Positions 5,737 to 52,441 of a DNA stretch of 64,000 bases are shown in pieces; the stretch's first letter is position 1; each line of letters begins with the position of its first letter. The notes under the pieces were generated by a model. The model saw nothing but the letters and a program-made list of their open reading frames with translations. It did not search any database and was not told the DNA's origin. Origin of the DNA: a virus (lineage: Duplodnaviria; Caudoviricetes); the IMG/VR virus record IMGVR_UViG_3300047375_000738; one strand, written 5' to 3'. Made by a program: the position numbers and the translations under genes.

Positions 5737-6388
5737 TAAAGCTATCTGGGTAGTTTGATTTAAAACTTTCTAAGCAAATTTGTGCATACGTACTCCAAGG
5801 TGCGCTATCTGTTACTTTTATATTCTTAGCATCTAAATATTTTAGTAGTTTGTCTTTTCGGTCATTGCTTATATGATCTAAAACTTCAGTAATTGCTACA
5901 TGTTCTTCGTTGTCGTTATAGCAGAAAAAATGATTAATATTTTTTAGTTTACCGTCTACAACAAAAAAGCTACTTGGATGTAAGCTATATTTCCATATAC
6001 CTGCACGTCTGTAATTTTTTAAGATACTAATTATTTGATCCTGCCAACCAGGCAAAATGTTATTATAGTTTTCTTGATTACAGTTTGCTAGTTGCCAAAA
6101 GTCATCTCCTTCGATATTAAAAATAATCTCTCTAGTATCCATGTCAATGTGCTGTATTTCTAAAACATGTTCAGGAAAAGATTTAAGCATTTGTTTGGTA
6201 AATTTTATTTCTCTTTGCCATCTTGTCTCGAGTGCATCTTCAGATAAACATTTGTTCATATGATACATTTGATCATACTTATAGTGTACACTAAAAAGTT
6301 TGTTTTGTCTATCTATTTTACTAGTGTATACTAAATTATTTCTACACAAGCCAACACCTGGCACATGATTATAATAGTATTCAAACAT
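5708..6388 (-). CDS. Hypothetical protein, possible kinase-like fold
   Basis: ETRWQREI...HVLEI...LHPSSFFV...KNIN resembles degenerate kinase subdomains; catalytic residues are not canonical. Confidence 0.35.
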   Translation of the reverse strand: MFEYYYNHVPGVGLCRNNLVYTSKIDRQNKLFSVHYKYDQMYHMNKCLSEDALETRWQREIKFTKQMLKSFPEHVLEIQHIDMDTREIIFNIEGDDFWQLANCNQENYNNILPGWQDQIISILKNYRRAGIWKYSLHPSSFFVVDGKLKNINHFFCYNDNEEHVAITEVLDHISNDRKDKLLKYLDAKNIKVTDSAPWSTYAQICLESFKSNYPDSFIERAKEIYV

Positions 6389-18332: not shown

Positions 18333-18340
18333 TATAAATA
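18333..18340 (+). promoter_or_regulatory. T4-type late promoter TATAAATA, leaderless
   Basis: Exact TATAAATA, 5 nt before ATG 18346. Confidence 0.6.
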
Positions 18341-18345
18341 TAAAC

Positions 18346-19668
18346 ATGGTACTTAATAAATATTTAGTCATCTTTCTAAACAACACCGCAGAAATTAAAA
18401 ACAATAAAATTAAGACTTATTGTCAAAATTTATTGCAATACTGGGCTTTAGAAATCAGTGTTCAAGTAAAAGTCAAAGTCTTTACATACATGGAGTCAGC
18501 ATTAGATTTTGTTGAAAATTGGAGTGACCACAAGCATGTAGTAATTATTGATATTGGAAATGATTTAGAAGTAAATGGACAGTTTATTTCAAAACTAATA
18601 GAAAATATTAATGATGACGATGTGCTAGTAGGACATATATTAGATAAACAAGATAGATACTATGAATTACACAATCAATGTTTCTATTTTAATGCAGATG
18701 TTTGGAAAAGTATAGGATGCCCCGAATATGGTCATAAAGAAAAAAAATTGTTATGCAATGTGCCTTTGAGATCTAAACAGAATCATCATGACGATTACAC
18801 TCCTTATTGGATTGCTCCTGGCACACAAGAGAAGCTTTACACTGATTTAAAACAAGGATACAATTTTATTAAATCGTTTTTAGATGCAGGCTTTACTATT
18901 AAAAGTTTTAACAAAAGTATTCGAGATAGCAAGGCATATTCTTATCCATATGAAATTGACGATCAGTTTCAAAATATTATTGATTTTAATTTTATTAAAA
19001 AATATTATCTATATAACACAGAAAAACAAAGATTGGAACAAATTCCAAATAAAAAAATAAAAAGATTTGCAACAGTTTGTGCAGGACTCAATCATTTAAA
19101 AGTTTTAAAAGATAAAGGATTTGACAGCGATACAAAATTGCTGTTTTATGATTGGGATGAGTTTAGTGTAGAAATGATGAAAGCTATATATTATCAATGG
19201 AACGGAATAGATTACGAAAATTTTGTAAAAGACACTGCAACTAAATTAAAATACACTGGAACTATTGTTGAAGATTGTAATAGAGAAAAAGAGTTTTTTG
19301 ATTTTTTTGGAGGCGAAAAACAATTTCAATCATGGTTTGCTGAACTAAGAGAAACAGTAACTTTTGATTTCAAACACATAGACATTATGCAATACAATGA
19401 AAACACTTTTGAAAAATTCTTTAATGCAAAAGGATTTAAATTATTTTGGTTAAGTAATATTTTCCATTACAAGCCTACAAGTATAATATATAATTTAGAA
19501 CAAAGAGCAAAAATACAAGATAGAGTAATTACAGCATTACCCAAGGAAAAGAATATGTTTGTTTTTTCTGATAGTTGTATATTAGATCAGTCTAAGATTT
19601 TTTCAACACTAGATTACAAAGAGAAAATTATAAATGCAAAACAGACACAGGAAGAGATATTAGTATGA
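18346..19668 (+). CDS. Hypothetical two-domain protein; C-terminal half possibly SAM-binding Rossmann-like
   Basis: 440-aa ORF; VCAGLN, LLFYDW and FWLSNIFHY motifs are only suggestive. Confidence 0.45.
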   Translation: MVLNKYLVIFLNNTAEIKNNKIKTYCQNLLQYWALEISVQVKVKVFTYMESALDFVENWSDHKHVVIIDIGNDLEVNGQFISKLIENINDDDVLVGHILDKQDRYYELHNQCFYFNADVWKSIGCPEYGHKEKKLLCNVPLRSKQNHHDDYTPYWIAPGTQEKLYTDLKQGYNFIKSFLDAGFTIKSFNKSIRDSKAYSYPYEIDDQFQNIIDFNFIKKYYLYNTEKQRLEQIPNKKIKRFATVCAGLNHLKVLKDKGFDSDTKLLFYDWDEFSVEMMKAIYYQWNGIDYENFVKDTATKLKYTGTIVEDCNREKEFFDFFGGEKQFQSWFAELRETVTFDFKHIDIMQYNENTFEKFFNAKGFKLFWLSNIFHYKPTSIIYNLEQRAKIQDRVITALPKEKNMFVFSDSCILDQSKIFSTLDYKEKIINAKQTQEEILV

Positions 19669-34671: not shown

Positions 34672-34700
34672 ATTATAACAAACTATTGATAGATTGTCAA
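34672..34700 (-). promoter_or_regulatory. Consensus sigma70 promoter, leaderless
   Basis: Minus strand TTGACA (34700-34695), 17 nt, TATAAT (34677-34672); ATG 6 nt later at 34665. Confidence 0.85.
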
Positions 34701-37600
34701 GTCCTTGTTAGAGAACCTTTCATGCCCATATTTTCGCTACTTTTCCACAACGGTGAATAAAGTATTCTATTAGGGCTTCTAGTAATACTATCGTCATCGC
34801 CCCAGGCCTGTTTAGGTAATACTGTAATAGTATTGTTCATTCCAGAGTGCGCACTACACTGATAGTAATATACCCCTGGCACTGTAGGGGTCCAACTTAC
34901 ATCTCCAAGAGTTGATCCTTGCCCAGTTGCTGCTGGAGTAGTGACTTGATCTCCTGTTCCTCCACCTTGTGTGTGCTTAATATACAAAGGATGTGAATTT
35001 GTATTATTTGTAAGAGTAATAGTATCACCTTCGTAGATAGTTATAGTTGGGTTATCGCCAACTACATTTCCTCCTGATCTATCTGCAGTACTAGTAAATG
35101 TATAGGCAATTGCTCCATTTGATGTAGGAATAGGAAATGTGAATGACGCAGCAGTGGCTTCAGTTTGTGAATCTACAAATAACTTATCTGTTGTTGCGTT
35201 ATTGTGAATGTACGTTTTCATCTGTGCCGGTGTCATGCCTGGATTAGCCTGAAGCACACTTGCTACCATTCCTGCTACTTGTGGAGATGCCATACTAGTA
35301 CCTGATATTTTCATGTATTCGTCTGTAGCACTCGAACCTGTAATAGGCGATTGTACTGTACTTGCACTTGCTTCAGTGCCATCAGTTAAATCACACGCAC
35401 CTGACTTGTCTGTACTAGCACAACTCATAATACTTGTTCCTGGCGCAAAAATATCAACTCCTGGGCCATGACAACTTGACTCTGCTTTTTGTTCTAACGA
35501 TCCTTGATAACTAGTATCTATATTACCTACCATGAATGCATCGGTGGTATATGGACTGCTACCTCTGTATGGAGTTTCTGCGCCATTGCCCACAGTGATT
35601 GTATCATTCCAGTTGTCGCCTGTAGCGGTATCAATGTACCAATAGCTGTTACCTGCTGCTATACAGAAGTGTATACCTGCTGCTATACATTCTTCAACAT
35701 CAGCATCTACACTTGCTACTCTAACATTAAGTCTTCTAGCTGTACCGCTACTAAAGTACTGCGGAATAATACCAAAATATGTATACCAGTCTGCGTCACT
35801 GTTGGCCACACCATTGGTTCCTGGTGTTAAACTATTACCTCTATAGCTTATAGCAGTAGGGTCAGTACTACGTGTTCCGCTATATCCCCAACTAGCATTG
35901 ACTACTGTAGGGCGCTTAAATCCAGTCTTAGGGTCCACTGGCTTGTTGTTGTGCCAGCCTTTAATAACATCAAAACAATCGCTTACACTAATTCCGCCAC
36001 TATCGCCGGCGCCTTCTAATCCGCCAACTTTTACACTATATATGTCAGCATCTCGTGCCCAGCCTAGTGTGCGCCCTGCTACAGTACCAGCACAATGTGA
36101 TCCGTGTCCATTATAGTCTCTATAATGGTTTGCACTCATTGTACCGCTTACACCACTGTGATCGTACCAATCGATTTCTTTTACTCTACTTAGTGCATCT
36201 GGTGAATATCCTGAGTGTCCTGCATCAAATGGATTGCCTGTGTCCCCGTCACCAAATAAACTCTGTATAGCTCTTTTAGAAACTTTAGCAATACATGGTT
36301 CGATATACTTTTTAAATAACGCATAACCTAACGGAAGTGTTGATTCAATTTGTGCTGGTGTTCTAACATCGTCTGTCCATTCAGGAGCAAGACTACCGCC
36401 ATCCCATAAACTTGAATAATCAAACATACAAAAGTTTAGTAGATACAAGTATTCTTTTGCTGCTACTTCAAATGCGTCTGAGTCAGTTTTCCACGCATTT
36501 GCTGGACTTTGATAACCCGATGGATCCCATTTGCTTGCGTCAAATGCTTCTTCCATTGCTGCGAATAGCTCGCCACTTTGCCAGTCAGCAGCTAAGTAAG
36601 CATACATTTTTAAATCATCTGCTGGCAGTCCGTGCATGTGTATTGTATGAAATATGTGTTCGATAACTTCTTGAGCATCAATATCACCAGTTCCTGGCGT
36701 GCCACTACTGTTTTGATACCATACCATATCGTTCATTTCGTGACTATCTAAAAAGTTAACATAACCAGCATACTGTGCTGCTCCTTCGTCTGTTAACCAA
36801 TTTGGTGTATATGAAGCACCGCCGCCATATCCAACACGTTGCGCTGTTTGTTTTCCTTGGTGCCAGCTAACTTCAGCATCGCCTCTAAGTGTAAGTATTA
36901 ATTTTTCTTGTATTGGAGGTGAAACATTTGCTGCTGTTGGATCAAGGAACCAATTATACATCTGGGCAACTTTATTACCCCATTCATCAGGCACTGTTGT
37001 TGCTCCACCAACTGCTCCAGCTAAAACAATTTTTACACCTTTTACTTGTATAGATCTGTCAAAAACTGCTCCGTTTGTACTATCAGATGTTATTGCACCT
37101 TTGTTGTACATATCGTTTGAATTGTAATTAATTTTTGTAAATTCTATATGATCGGATTGTAATCCCGAATCTTGTATTACAATGTCAACACCTTGCCCTG
37201 TTAGTGTATGCGGAAAGTCTGCTGTGACACTGGTTGTACCACTACCCCATAAGTCTTCTCTAACAACACATCTAGCATTACCCCAATTTAAATCTGCTGC
37301 GGTAATAGCACTGGTTTTTCTAAATGCATCGGTAACAAGTGCGTTATTACCAATTTCAATATCGTCTCTAAGTTCGGGCGGAATTTGTACATCAACTACT
37401 CTAGCATCACTACGTAACGCAACAGCTTCTTCGTCAGTCAAACTGTAATGTGTGTTACGCTGACTCAATGGTCTTGCGTTTGCTACTGCAACTGTGCGAT
37501 TAGGAATATCTCCTGCACCCGTGTTTGCAATCATTTCTGCATTGAATGCATCGTAGTCAACACCTGCTTCTAGTGTGACAATATATTCTTTTTCGCTCAT
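34697..37600 (-). CDS. Subtilisin-like S8 protease with a large insertion and a C-terminal cupredoxin-like domain
   Basis: Triad motifs DIVIQDSG, GHGSHCAG, SGTSMASP; oxyanion AAGN; C-terminal HPLYI...YYYQCSAHSGM. Confidence 0.88.
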   Translation of the reverse strand: MSEKEYIVTLEAGVDYDAFNAEMIANTGAGDIPNRTVAVANARPLSQRNTHYSLTDEEAVALRSDARVVDVQIPPELRDDIEIGNNALVTDAFRKTSAITAADLNWGNARCVVREDLWGSGTTSVTADFPHTLTGQGVDIVIQDSGLQSDHIEFTKINYNSNDMYNKGAITSDSTNGAVFDRSIQVKGVKIVLAGAVGGATTVPDEWGNKVAQMYNWFLDPTAANVSPPIQEKLILTLRGDAEVSWHQGKQTAQRVGYGGGASYTPNWLTDEGAAQYAGYVNFLDSHEMNDMVWYQNSSGTPGTGDIDAQEVIEHIFHTIHMHGLPADDLKMYAYLAADWQSGELFAAMEEAFDASKWDPSGYQSPANAWKTDSDAFEVAAKEYLYLLNFCMFDYSSLWDGGSLAPEWTDDVRTPAQIESTLPLGYALFKKYIEPCIAKVSKRAIQSLFGDGDTGNPFDAGHSGYSPDALSRVKEIDWYDHSGVSGTMSANHYRDYNGHGSHCAGTVAGRTLGWARDADIYSVKVGGLEGAGDSGGISVSDCFDVIKGWHNNKPVDPKTGFKRPTVVNASWGYSGTRSTDPTAISYRGNSLTPGTNGVANSDADWYTYFGIIPQYFSSGTARRLNVRVASVDADVEECIAAGIHFCIAAGNSYWYIDTATGDNWNDTITVGNGAETPYRGSSPYTTDAFMVGNIDTSYQGSLEQKAESSCHGPGVDIFAPGTSIMSCASTDKSGACDLTDGTEASASTVQSPITGSSATDEYMKISGTSMASPQVAGMVASVLQANPGMTPAQMKTYIHNNATTDKLFVDSQTEATAASFTFPIPTSNGAIAYTFTSTADRSGGNVVGDNPTITIYEGDTITLTNNTNSHPLYIKHTQGGGTGDQVTTPAATGQGSTLGDVSWTPTVPGVYYYQCSAHSGMNNTITVLPKQAWGDDDSITRSPNRILYSPLWKSSENMGMKGSLTRT

Positions 37601-39389: not shown

Positions 39390-39398
39390 TTGAAAATT

Positions 39399-39440
39399 CT
39401 CCTAGGTGATATTTTGTTATATGTATTTATCACCTAGGAG
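39399..39440 (-). promoter_or_regulatory. 13-bp perfect inverted repeat sequestering the tail-fibre SD, with a late promoter ATAAATA (39424-39430) at the 5' arm/loop junction
   Basis: CTCCTAGGTGATA (39399-39411) and TATCACCTAGGAG (39428-39440), 16-nt loop. Confidence 0.8.
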
Positions 39441-39446
39441 CAATTA

Positions 39447-39755
39447 TCATTTATTTAATTTGAGAAAACGTTTAACACGTTTAGTCAAGTCTTTTCTAAT
39501 GCGATCCATGTCCATACGGAAGTCTATATTATCAATAGTTGGTTCGTATTCTTGAAACAGTGTTTCTAAACTTTGCTCAATGTCGTCAATTGATTGCTTC
39601 TTACGACTATCTTTGATGTCAACTTCCCATACATTACCGTCTTTAAACTTAATAATGCATTTTTTCATATATTCAATTGGTAATATTTCAATTTCAATAT
39701 CTTGAAATATATCATCCCAATCAGTTTCGTCGGTCTTGTTATTTGGATCTGTCAC
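39447..39755 (-). CDS. Hypothetical protein
   Basis: 102-aa ORF with SD-like GAGT/GAG upstream, in the minus-strand gene run. Confidence 0.7.
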   Translation of the reverse strand: MTDPNNKTDETDWDDIFQDIEIEILPIEYMKKCIIKFKDGNVWEVDIKDSRKKQSIDDIEQSLETLFQEYEPTIDNIDFRMDMDRIRKDLTKRVKRFLKLNK

Positions 39756-42269: not shown

Positions 42270-42298
42270 ATAATACACTTCTATTTACGTTTTGTCAA
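42270..42298 (-). promoter_or_regulatory. Sigma70-type promoter of the VWA gene
   Basis: TTGACA-17-TATTAT; SD AAGGAG before ATG 42240. Confidence 0.75.
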
Positions 42299-42301
42299 GA
42301 G

Positions 42302-42331
42302 AAAAGTTGGGCGAGATTGACCCGCCCAACT
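42302..42331 (-). terminator. Intrinsic terminator after the AAA ATPase gene
   Basis: AGTTGGGCG/CGCCCAACT 9-bp stem followed by TTTTCTCTT on the minus strand. Confidence 0.8.
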
Positions 42332-43490: not shown

Positions 43491-43879
43491 CCTTTACTTG
43501 GTAAGTTTTCTGATCTTTTCATGGCTTTTGTTATACCGTACTTACGAAGATCGCCACTGAACAGTGTAAGTTCAACTGCTTTTTTCTCGTTGGTTACGTG
43601 TATAGCAGTGTTATCAAGGTAATACGGACAGTCAATAAACTGATCTAAAAATATAATTACCTGTGTGGTGATTGGCATATCTGGTGGATACAGTATTCTA
43701 TATGTTGCTAGATCAATTTTAGAAAGCATATCAAACCCTTCTTCGGTTAAACGAAGTCCGCCGACTTCCTTTTCTCTAGTGTTCTTCCACCATGTTGGAA
43801 AGTACTGAGCTATGTTCTCTTTACTAATTGCCAGGTTAAGTTGTTTTAAAAAAAGTTTTGTATATACTGTCTTATTCAT
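43487..43879 (-). CDS. Hypothetical protein
   Basis: 130-aa ORF overlapping its upstream neighbour. Confidence 0.72.
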   Translation of the reverse strand: MNKTVYTKLFLKQLNLAISKENIAQYFPTWWKNTREKEVGGLRLTEEGFDMLSKIDLATYRILYPPDMPITTQVIIFLDQFIDCPYYLDNTAIHVTNEKKAVELTLFSGDLRKYGITKAMKRSENLPSKG

Positions 43880-44162
43880 CTGTAACTTTTTCGCCTGCTG
43901 TTAATTTAAATACAGCAAAGTCGTTAGTCTTAAACATTATGTTTAGTTTTTTAGAAAGATTAATTGCATGTCCTGGATTTGAAAAACTTGTTTTCTTATA
44001 CTTAGGTCCGGGATAATTTGTTAATTTGTTTTGTGACTTTAAGTTAAATGGTTTGTCTTTATAGAATACCGCCCAGATAGCTTCAGCATCGAGCACTTGC
44101 TCACTCTTGTAAGTTTTACCGTCTACAAATTCCATTAATATATTTGGTGCTGGTCTACTCAT
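43872..44162 (-). CDS. Hypothetical protein
   Basis: 96-aa ORF with SD AAGGA; preceded by a hairpin and late promoter. Confidence 0.75.
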   Translation of the reverse strand: MSRPAPNILMEFVDGKTYKSEQVLDAEAIWAVFYKDKPFNLKSQNKLTNYPGPKYKKTSFSNPGHAINLSKKLNIMFKTNDFAVFKLTAGEKVTDE

Positions 44163-44197
44163 ATGCGTATCCTTTAGTTATATACGCATATATTTAT
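44161..44197 (-). promoter_or_regulatory. 10-bp inverted repeat over the start region with late promoter ATAAATA (44191-44197)
   Basis: ATATGCGTAT (44161-44170) and ATACGCATAT (44182-44191), 11-nt loop. Confidence 0.72.
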
Positions 44198-51555: not shown

Positions 51556-52441
51556 AATTTAATCCTTTTATATACTGTTTATGGAAACTTAATCTATTTG
51601 TATTTCCGCCGCGATTATATTGGTTATATATATTTTTATCATCTATACCAAAAATTACTGTCGCACTTGGATTTATTCCTAGCTCATTACAAAATTCTTT
51701 TTGTTTTTGTATATATTTTTGTGGTATGTAGTCGGGTGTAAAGTTTTCAAGATACTTTATGCCTAATGCTGCACCTAGTTTGTTGTTATATGAAATTTTA
51801 TGGTATACAAACATAGTATCGTCGTCATCGACTTTAGTATATCTTATACCAATACGTGCATATGCTACTGGAAAACTTTTACTAAGGCTAAAAGTTACAT
51901 CAGTTATACAATTATATGCAATATCAATTGATACGCCGTAACAAGCACCAAAATATGCACAATCTACCAGTACTGGTATTCCAAGCTCACAGCACTCACG
52001 CATAAGTTCATGATACTTAGAGTGCTTGTCGCCTGTATCTGCAAATGGTAGACTAATTACTACTGCATCTGCTTTGTGCAACGGTTCATCTTCTAAATAT
52101 GCCCAAACATATTTGTCTCTCCAAGCAAGTTTATGATACATATACTCGCCTTTAAAACAGCGGAAGCGTCTTTTAGAATTTTTCATATAAAATTTATCAA
52201 ATGATTCGGTTGTTCCGTTGCTATAGCATTTGTATTTAAAATCTTCTAACCCTGTAATACTATTAACTGTTGATTTTTTAATCCATTTGTCGTAGTCATA
52301 CAAAAATTCGTCAATAATGTTGTCATTATTGAGACATTGTAGATCTAATGTATTACGTAAAAGTTTTGTAGTTTCTGGATCGCTTATTGCAAAAGCACTT
52401 CCAAAATCCATATGTCTTTTATCATTGGGTATATTTGTCAT
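51539..52441 (-). CDS. Compact fold-type I PLP-dependent enzyme (aminotransferase/decarboxylase-like)
   Basis: SNGTTE, LVDCAY, FSLSKSF (PLP Lys), RIG. Confidence 0.72.
   Translation of the reverse strand: MTNIPNDKRHMDFGSAFAISDPETTKLLRNTLDLQCLNNDNIIDEFLYDYDKWIKKSTVNSITGLEDFKYKCYSNGTTESFDKFYMKNSKRRFRCFKGEYMYHKLAWRDKYVWAYLEDEPLHKADAVVISLPFADTGDKHSKYHELMRECCELGIPVLVDCAYFGACYGVSIDIAYNCITDVTFSLSKSFPVAYARIGIRYTKVDDDDTMFVYHKISYNNKLGAALGIKYLENFTPDYIPQKYIQKQKEFCNELGINPSATVIFGIDDKNIYNQYNRGGNTNRLSFHKQYIKGLNFASTE

Follow-up and report, generated by a model that had tools for sequence, protein, structure and literature searches.

A predicted T4-type timing switch: a putative late promoter inside a hairpin before the tail-fibre gene of an uncultured marine T4-like phage

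The leader of a tail fibre-like gene in an uncultured marine phage carries a perfect 13-bp hairpin, which covers the Shine-Dalgarno (SD) sequence of the gene and has a putative late promoter at the junction of its 5' arm and loop. We consider this element likely to be a cis-acting timing switch of the type described for T4 genes e, soc and I-TevI, and the fibre would then probably be made only from late transcripts. A preliminary description of the same DNA had proposed this interpretation, and every part of it that can be examined in the sequence came out as predicted. The mechanism itself is not new, as it is already known from phage T4. What differs here is the host-recognition fibre gene as its target, the uncultured marine T4-like lineage in which it occurs, and its recurrence with independent arms. 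The window, i.e., the whole stretch of 64,000 nucleotides that was analyzed, corresponds to the minus strand of positions 27925-91924 in a single 170-kb genome with 35.9% GC, and positions given below are those of the window unless stated otherwise (Table 1).

According to the proposed scheme, host sigma70 polymerase starting at 42298 and 43490 would produce RNA that crosses five tightly packed genes (coding for 437, 91, 83, 200 and 102 aa) and enters the fibre gene. In such read-through RNA, whose existence and amount we infer, the 5' arm would pair with the 3' arm and bury the SD together with most of the SD-AUG spacer, so that ribosomes would be unable to start on the fibre gene. At the late stage, polymerase carrying a phage gp55-type sigma factor would recognize GATAAATA at the arm/loop junction and initiate within the loop. 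Because a start at this place leaves out the 5' arm, the late mRNA would have an open 29-nt leader and could be translated, along with the 967-aa gene behind the fibre gene.

Table 1. Features of the fibre-gene locus, in window coordinates
Feature	Position	Strand	Description
Regulated fibre-like gene, 592 aa	37611..39389	-	Mtd_N N-terminal domain (Pfam E = 1.6e-10)
967-aa gene	34697..37600	-	S8 peptidase (subtilase) domain and baseplate/fibre-connector-like C-terminus
Upstream gene, 102 aa	39447..39755	-	Stop codon inside the structure; last gene of the presumed read-through unit
5' arm (anti-SD strand)	39428..39440	-	Ends in GATA, which forms the first half of the putative late promoter
Loop, 16 nt	39412..39427	-	Contains the predicted late start and the other half of the promoter
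3' arm	39399..39411	-	Includes Shine-Dalgarno AGGAG at 39403-39399
Full extended structure	39391..39449	-	13-bp core, outer AAUU/AAUU helix and UGA/UCA pairs
Putative late-promoter motif GATAAATA	39424..39431	-	Core TAAATA at 39429-39424; straddles the 5' arm/loop junction
Predicted late transcription start	39418..39419	-	5-6 nt after TAAATA; position from motif spacing
Sigma70-type promoter TTGACA-17-TATTAT	42270..42298	-	Likely source of early read-through transcripts
Second sigma70-type promoter	43490-43462	-	Points toward the fibre gene
Intrinsic terminator	42305..42331	-	Only canonical one on the strand in the region; upstream of the 42298 promoter

Searches of the locus DNA against 50,697 phage records gave no match, and hence no close DNA relative among sequenced phages. 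The genome contains T4-type homologs of gp43, gp44, gp46, gp47 and gp55. The gp55 homolog (tblastn, E = 2e-6; about 30% identity to T4 gp55) adjoins gp47 and gp46, the same arrangement as in T4, and the late-sigma ORF matches phrog_12791, 'sigma factor for late transcription' (E = 2.8e-77). By these genes, the uncultured marine phage is T4-like, although only a distant relative. The N-terminus of the fibre protein resembles proteins of cultured phages that are annotated as tail fibres, as well as the product of a gene in pelagimyophage HTVC008M. The full-length protein had no match among phage records at E <= 1e-5, and its weak matches to phage proteins were confined to the N-terminal 110 aa. 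Because this N-terminus matches annotated tail fibres of cultured phages and contains an Mtd_N domain, the name tail-fibre gene that the preliminary description had used for the downstream gene appears reasonable. The 967-aa gene begins 10 nt past the fibre gene, and the next sigma70-like promoter occurs only at 34700; this gene is therefore probably on the fibre gene's late transcript and under the same predicted switch. The order of the 200-aa, 102-aa and fibre genes is kept in relatives.

When read on the minus strand, all 13 stem pairs of the hairpin are Watson-Crick, in agreement base for base with the perfect stem that had been claimed; the placement of AGGAG within the 3' arm was likewise confirmed. 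The sequence ATAAATA, reported earlier at the 5' arm/loop junction, is found at 39430-39424; its ATA belongs to the stem and its AATA to the loop. The 3' arm is separated from the fibre ATG (39389-39387) by a 9-nt spacer, and the 5' arm is confined to RNA begun upstream of the putative late promoter. Folding in context added an outer helix, in which AAUU at 39445-39442 pairs with AAUU at 39398-39395, and paired the stop codon of the 102-aa gene (UGA, 39449-39447) with UCA at 39393-39391. Because of these additional pairs, the structure extends from the stop codon of the upstream gene to 2 nt before the fibre AUG.

The minimum free energy of the 87-nt context was -23.8 kcal/mol, compared with -7.9 +/- 2.5 kcal/mol in dinucleotide shuffles (z = -6.5 to -6.7), and none of 200 shuffles was as good as the native hairpin. 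This is the longest perfect hairpin of the 170,115-bp genome, which has no other perfect inverted repeat of at least 13 bp when loops of 30 nt or less are considered, and its arms are single-copy in the 170 kb even when up to two mismatches are tolerated. A search of Rfam 15 placed the hairpin in no family at gathering score, and the generic miRNA-precursor hairpin matches were far below it. The hexamer CCTAGG is scarce genome-wide (5 copies versus about 18 expected from base composition), and the two hairpin arms account for two of the five copies.

Several observations support the claim that a late promoter lies in the hairpin. In addition to the gp55-type sigma factor, the hexamer TAAATA was found to be concentrated within 40 nt upstream of gene starts, where 37 of its 209 copies occur (17.7% versus a background of 2.2%, an 8-fold enrichment). 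When all hexamers were compared, it was the only non-SD hexamer strongly enriched before gene starts. Genes downstream of TAAATA include a baseplate wedge subunit and virion structural proteins. The DNA polymerase gene was considered as a further target and dropped, since its TAAATA sits by chance in the spacer of a sigma70-type promoter. The base preceding ATAAATA is free in this phage (G, T, C and A were all found), and exact TATAAATA is depleted in the window (2 copies versus about 10 expected).

Two spacing classes of TAAATA were observed. In about eleven genes genome-wide, TAAATA is followed by 4 or 5 nt and then by ATG; examples in the window are TAAATA at 18335-18340 (+) before the gene starting at 18346, and TAAATA at 2123 (+) before the gene starting at 2133. 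Because this spacing leaves no room for an SD, these genes point to a class of leaderless late mRNAs, in which the start would be fixed at 5-6 nt past the motif. In the second class, 16-34 nt separate TAAATA from ATG and an SD is present. The 5-6 nt rule agrees with T4, in which about one helical turn separates the late TATA box from the start downstream of it (PMC2988020). If applied to the fibre leader, it puts the predicted start in the loop, and any start within several bases of this position would also be in the loop and past the entire 5' arm. On the minus strand between 43600 and 37500, the TAAATA of the hairpin is the only intergenic one besides the copy in the spacer of the 42298 promoter. 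A second TAAATA occurs at 39457-39452 (-), in the terminal codons (K L N K stop) of the 102-aa gene and 28 nt before the main promoter. If active, it would yield late RNA with the whole hairpin. It is probably incidental, because it is not conserved and is present in some relatives only.

Thermodynamic folding of the leaders agreed with the claimed occlusion of the SD in read-through RNA and its release in late RNA. Mean predicted unpaired probability of the SD window was 0.13 in a long leader, which included 60 nt upstream of the predicted start, versus 0.71 in the leader that begins at the predicted start. This contrast ranked first among the 29 leadered TAAATA genes of the genome. When the pre-start segment was shuffled, the mean unpaired probability of the SD was 0.49. 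The same computation for the experimentally proven control, the leader of T4 gene e, gave 0.36 for the long and 0.84 for the late form. Burial of the SD in the long leader is thus predicted to be at least as strong as in this control.

The read-through part of the scheme requires transcripts that arrive from upstream. Of 30 sequences of the form TTGACA-N16-18-TAnnnT, 14 were followed within 100 nt by a gene start on the same strand, compared with 3 of 56 for scrambled hexamers, and sigma70-type promoters therefore appear to be a real class in this phage. Judged by their promoter motifs only, the genes upstream of the hairpin would be early in timing. The region has a single canonical terminator on this strand, and because transcripts from the 42298 promoter start past it, no stop is expected between that promoter and the hairpin. 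These predicted signals, same-strand sigma70-type promoters upstream and no terminator before the hairpin, are compatible with the read-through that had been proposed. In addition, an RNA-library contig covers 38600-39949 without difference and is compatible with read-through RNA, with the qualification that DNA carry-over is possible and that contigs show no RNA ends, strand or level.

Conservation of the element was assessed in homologous leaders. Protein-guided searches of IMG/VR with the fibre, 200-aa and 102-aa proteins, combined with a promoter+SD pattern scan, yielded 68 distinct fibre leaders, and in all 68 of these fibre-homolog leaders TAAATA was present 20-60 nt before ATG. A metagenome pattern scan, in which only ATAAATA, GGAG and the codons of the N-terminal MA[LF]x[LF]RRG were fixed, added at least 91 new distinct leaders, for a total of 159 among the matches listed. 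The occluding hairpin was present in 22 of these 159 distinct leaders (about 14%, among the matches listed) and was missing from most homologous leaders of the same gene order. It is therefore not essential for this fibre gene, and its distribution is patchy; it is no general property of the fibre gene family. Among the 50,697 phage records, no cultured phage carrying this hairpin was found. Duplex energies between the pre-start segment and the leader were bimodal in the set of 68, with 16 leaders at or below -20 kcal/mol and the rest at or above -15 kcal/mol. Leaders that lack the hairpin do not have a terminator upstream of the promoter as a substitute: one was detected in 3 of 52 hairpin-less leaders versus none of 16 hairpin-bearing leaders.

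Native pairing was also compared with pairings in which the pre-start segments were foreign (500 permutations). In a first swap test on 68 leaders in 19 clusters, the result was not significant overall (Wilcoxon p = 0.63), showing that the hairpin is clade-restricted. With 159 leaders, native pairing was in the best 1% for 22 leaders, with 1.6 expected, among the matches listed. Sequence clusters that contained a best-1% leader numbered 5 of 40 among the matches listed, whereas the 500 permutations gave 0.95 on average and never more than 4 (p < 0.002). These counts indicate that the design is patchy yet recurrent, with arms that co-vary as whole helices. Hairpins that had unrelated arms, but still carried the SD on the 3' arm and the promoter in their loop, were found in leaders L022, L361/L339, L359, L306/L283 and L382, with z-scores from -2.5 to -6.8. 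Leaders L248, L251 and L253 (which pair with the AUG) and several weak stems (L040, L247, L250 and most of a further class, class B) were chance-like and were not counted as support.

The clade that shares the window's arms, designated class A, comprises about 16-20 variants with arms of 12-16 bp. All four GGAG bases are paired in these variants, and loops (11-26 nt) and flanks vary; other variation includes bulges, a few mismatches and G.U wobbles. The 3' arm is identical in 16 of 20 aligned class-A sequences. In leader L092, an extra A in the 5' arm is matched by an extra T in the 3' arm, which represents a compensated insertion. Pairs were counted by script in a covariance-model alignment from which antisense matches caused by the palindrome had been removed; a MAFFT alignment of class A, in which bulged 5' arms were shifted, was left out of the counts. 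Over the 13 core pairs in 23 sense leaders, there were 13 G.U cells versus 4 A.C cells. This excess favors a sense RNA, and at about 9 versus 4 independent events it amounts to a lean in that direction. No classic double substitutions were present in the class-A core pairs of these 23 leaders, and support from class A is thus conservation. The outer helix varied as AAAT/ATTT, ATTT/AAAT, TATT/AATA and AATT/AATT, which is suggestive of covariation, although the sequence is AT-rich and pairing registers differ. The covariation in homologous loci that had been proposed as a check was found in the form of unrelated arms in five of 40 clusters, among the matches listed, and the compensated L092, but not as double substitutions in the class-A core.

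Contigs of relatives in three runs matched the window from 39430, at the promoter, onward and diverged exactly upstream of ATAAATA, where their sequence resembled the hairpin-less leader class. A recombination joint at this position was considered and set aside, as a simpler view is that other fibre leaders share only the promoter and start region. The divergence could reflect either this region as the sole shared piece or fibre modules that were joined to different upstream contexts.

Among other explanations, the hairpin could serve mainly to stop or pause transcription of the upstream early operon; late transcripts would escape by starting inside it, and control would be exerted on transcription instead of translation. 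We regard this as unlikely. Its location exactly at the end of the upstream gene, with the stop codon in the stem and AAUUUUCAA following, would suit such a site, but only four U follow the stem, two of them are paired in the extended stem, and the loop is 16 nt long. The U run is also not conserved: AAAUAC follows GGAG in leaders L118 and L160, and AUUCAU in L005, and their stems are still strong. For these reasons, assignment to the Rho-independent terminators was rejected, and a terminator scan did not call the hairpin. In a sliding fold over 6 kb of the minus strand, it was the second strongest structure, after the genome's real terminator at 42331-42305, which differs from it in having a GC-rich stem, a 5-nt loop and a U run. 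Contigs break near the hairpin in two RNA libraries, a weak indication; gaps in coverage and contig breaks around 39438-39487 were left out of the evidence, as contigs carry no RNA-end information. In addition, the SD is always covered by the 3' arm, a feature that a terminator would not need.

An element for RNA stability or processing, either a protective 3' stem or a nuclease site whose overlap with the SD is incidental, is less probable still. Stable stems at operon ends commonly shield mRNA 3' ends, and the structure does begin at the upstream stop codon. However, independent arm classes all have the SD within the 3' arm and the putative late promoter at the junction or in the loop, and neither would be necessary for protection of a 3' end. 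Typical RNase III substrates are longer than a stem of 13-17 bp, which is the length available here.

The inverted repeat might also act as DNA, either as the operator of a dimeric repressor at the late promoter or as a recombination joint of a fibre cassette; we give this very little weight. The promoter is flanked by the repeat, whose two arms are highly conserved, and I-TevI provides a known case of autorepression of the operator type at a late promoter (PMC2988022). On the other hand, arm spacing ranges from 11 to 26 nt among strong variants, which would be awkward for a dimeric DNA-binding protein, and the one-sided changes described above are mostly G.U in the sense RNA. With regard to a recombination joint, the fibre gene is within a hyperplastic host-recognition region (PMC7029224) and PeSL cassettes provide a precedent for cassette-swapping joints, but the arms are single-copy, so there is no dispersed cassette, and the same layout occurs with unrelated arm sequences. 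Finally, a chance palindrome without function is highly improbable in view of the comparative data: a perfect repeat of at least 13 bp did arise in one of 10 Markov-shuffled genomes and the hairpin is missing from most homologous leaders, but about 20 distinct sequences keep it despite diverged loops and flanks, L092 has a compensated indel, and independent arms recur in five clusters (p < 0.002, among the matches listed).

The T4 precedent named in the preliminary description, i.e., the combination of a late promoter and a hairpin at the ribosome-binding site in e, soc and I-TevI, is documented (PMC3014915, PMC2988022), and the same design has been described for 49, 39, 25, 26, I-TevII, I-TevIII, segB and mobE of Aeromonas phage Aeh1 (PMC2988022). 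In T4 gene e, the hairpin sequesters the SD on transcripts started upstream, with a 100-fold effect on lysozyme synthesis (PMC3014915). The similarity to the fibre leader includes a late promoter within the 5' strand/loop region, such that late RNA lacks the inhibitory strand, and the same long-versus-late pattern of the accessibility metric. Gene e differs in that it has two TATAAATA boxes and that its stem is shorter and includes wobble pairs, whereas the fibre leader has a perfect 13-bp stem and a single GATAAATA, located at the arm/loop junction; moreover, the gene that would be regulated here codes for a fibre and not for a lysis enzyme. In I-TevI (in the td intron), I-TevII, I-TevIII, segB and mobE, a late gene within an early or middle unit likewise has its ribosome-binding site in a hairpin that late RNA is unable to form, owing to the position of the late promoter (PMC2988022). 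These are homing endonuclease genes, however, and I-TevI adds autorepression at the DNA level at its promoter. T4 soc, 49, 39, 25 and 26, which are late genes downstream of early or middle genes, are similar by description in that the ribosome-binding site is sequestered on a long polycistronic RNA (PMC2988022). The sequence features of this T4 class are present at the fibre gene, namely a gp55-type sigma factor with its putative promoters, a structure predicted to cover the SD, placement of the promoter as judged by motif position, and upkeep in relatives.

PeSL cassettes of T4-type phages also consist of a stem-loop and a promoter between genes in hyperplastic regions, but there the stem-loop is a terminator, the promoter is early, and each genome has many similar copies (PMC2839356, PMC4122927). 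In the fibre leader, a single-copy stem-loop covers the SD and encloses the putative late promoter; with arms found once in 170 kb and a promoter of late type, identity with a mobile PeSL cassette was ruled out. The late promoter of cyanophage S-PM2, NATAAATA, has the same core and a free first base (PMC2984593). We found no description in the literature of a hairpin switch for late promoters of marine T4-like phages, and prediction of late promoters in pelagimyophages was reported to be unsuccessful (PMC7029224). In Pelagibacter phage HTVC008M, the leader of the homologous Mtd_N-type gene (NC_020484, about 51650-51700; L262:2440-2495) has two tandem TATAAATA boxes and a CTAGGAG SD. No hairpin was detected in this leader, and the gene upstream is structural. 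These tandem boxes may help define late promoters of pelagimyophages.

The presence of at least five unrelated arm sequences before the same host-recognition fibre gene raises the possibility, which we offer tentatively, that the switch is an insulator repeatedly re-invented at this position in abundant uncultured marine T4-like phages. If true, strong recurrent selection against early synthesis of the fibre would be implied. A plausible cause would then be the repeated arrival of fibre cassettes behind early genes within the hyperplastic host-recognition region, and a hairpin with an internal late promoter would permit cassettes to be shuffled without mistiming. Recurrence with unrelated arms provides modest evidence, from natural variation, for a cost of early read-through into fibre genes. 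With the proposed switch, a classic post-transcriptional timing device of T4 would be extended to a structural gene for host recognition. It would also reach a distant marine branch of the T4 superfamily that is abundant but uncultured, and whose late promoters have been hard to define (PMC7029224). For annotation, the TAAATA rule, with a start 5-6 nt downstream, and the hairpin together offer a way to assign late timing, and the model predicts a precise late 5' end.

Two further structures were noted in this genome. A second hairpin at 44161-44197 (-), with arms ATATGCGTAT and ATACGCATAT of 10-11 bp, covers the AUG, but not the SD, of a 96-aa ORF (43872-44162). TAAATA overlaps the start of its 5' arm, so that a late start would drop most of the arm; the SD-window metric misses such an effect (0.60 versus 0.56). 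Outside the window, at about 6230-6320 (+) of the genome, a candidate with similar logic was identified, in which a segment about 30 nt upstream of GATAAATA is predicted to pair with the SD region of a 176-aa gene. Its stem is looser (-12 kcal/mol), the predicted unpaired probability of the SD was 0.14 in the long versus 0.69 in the short leader, and 2% of shuffles were as good.
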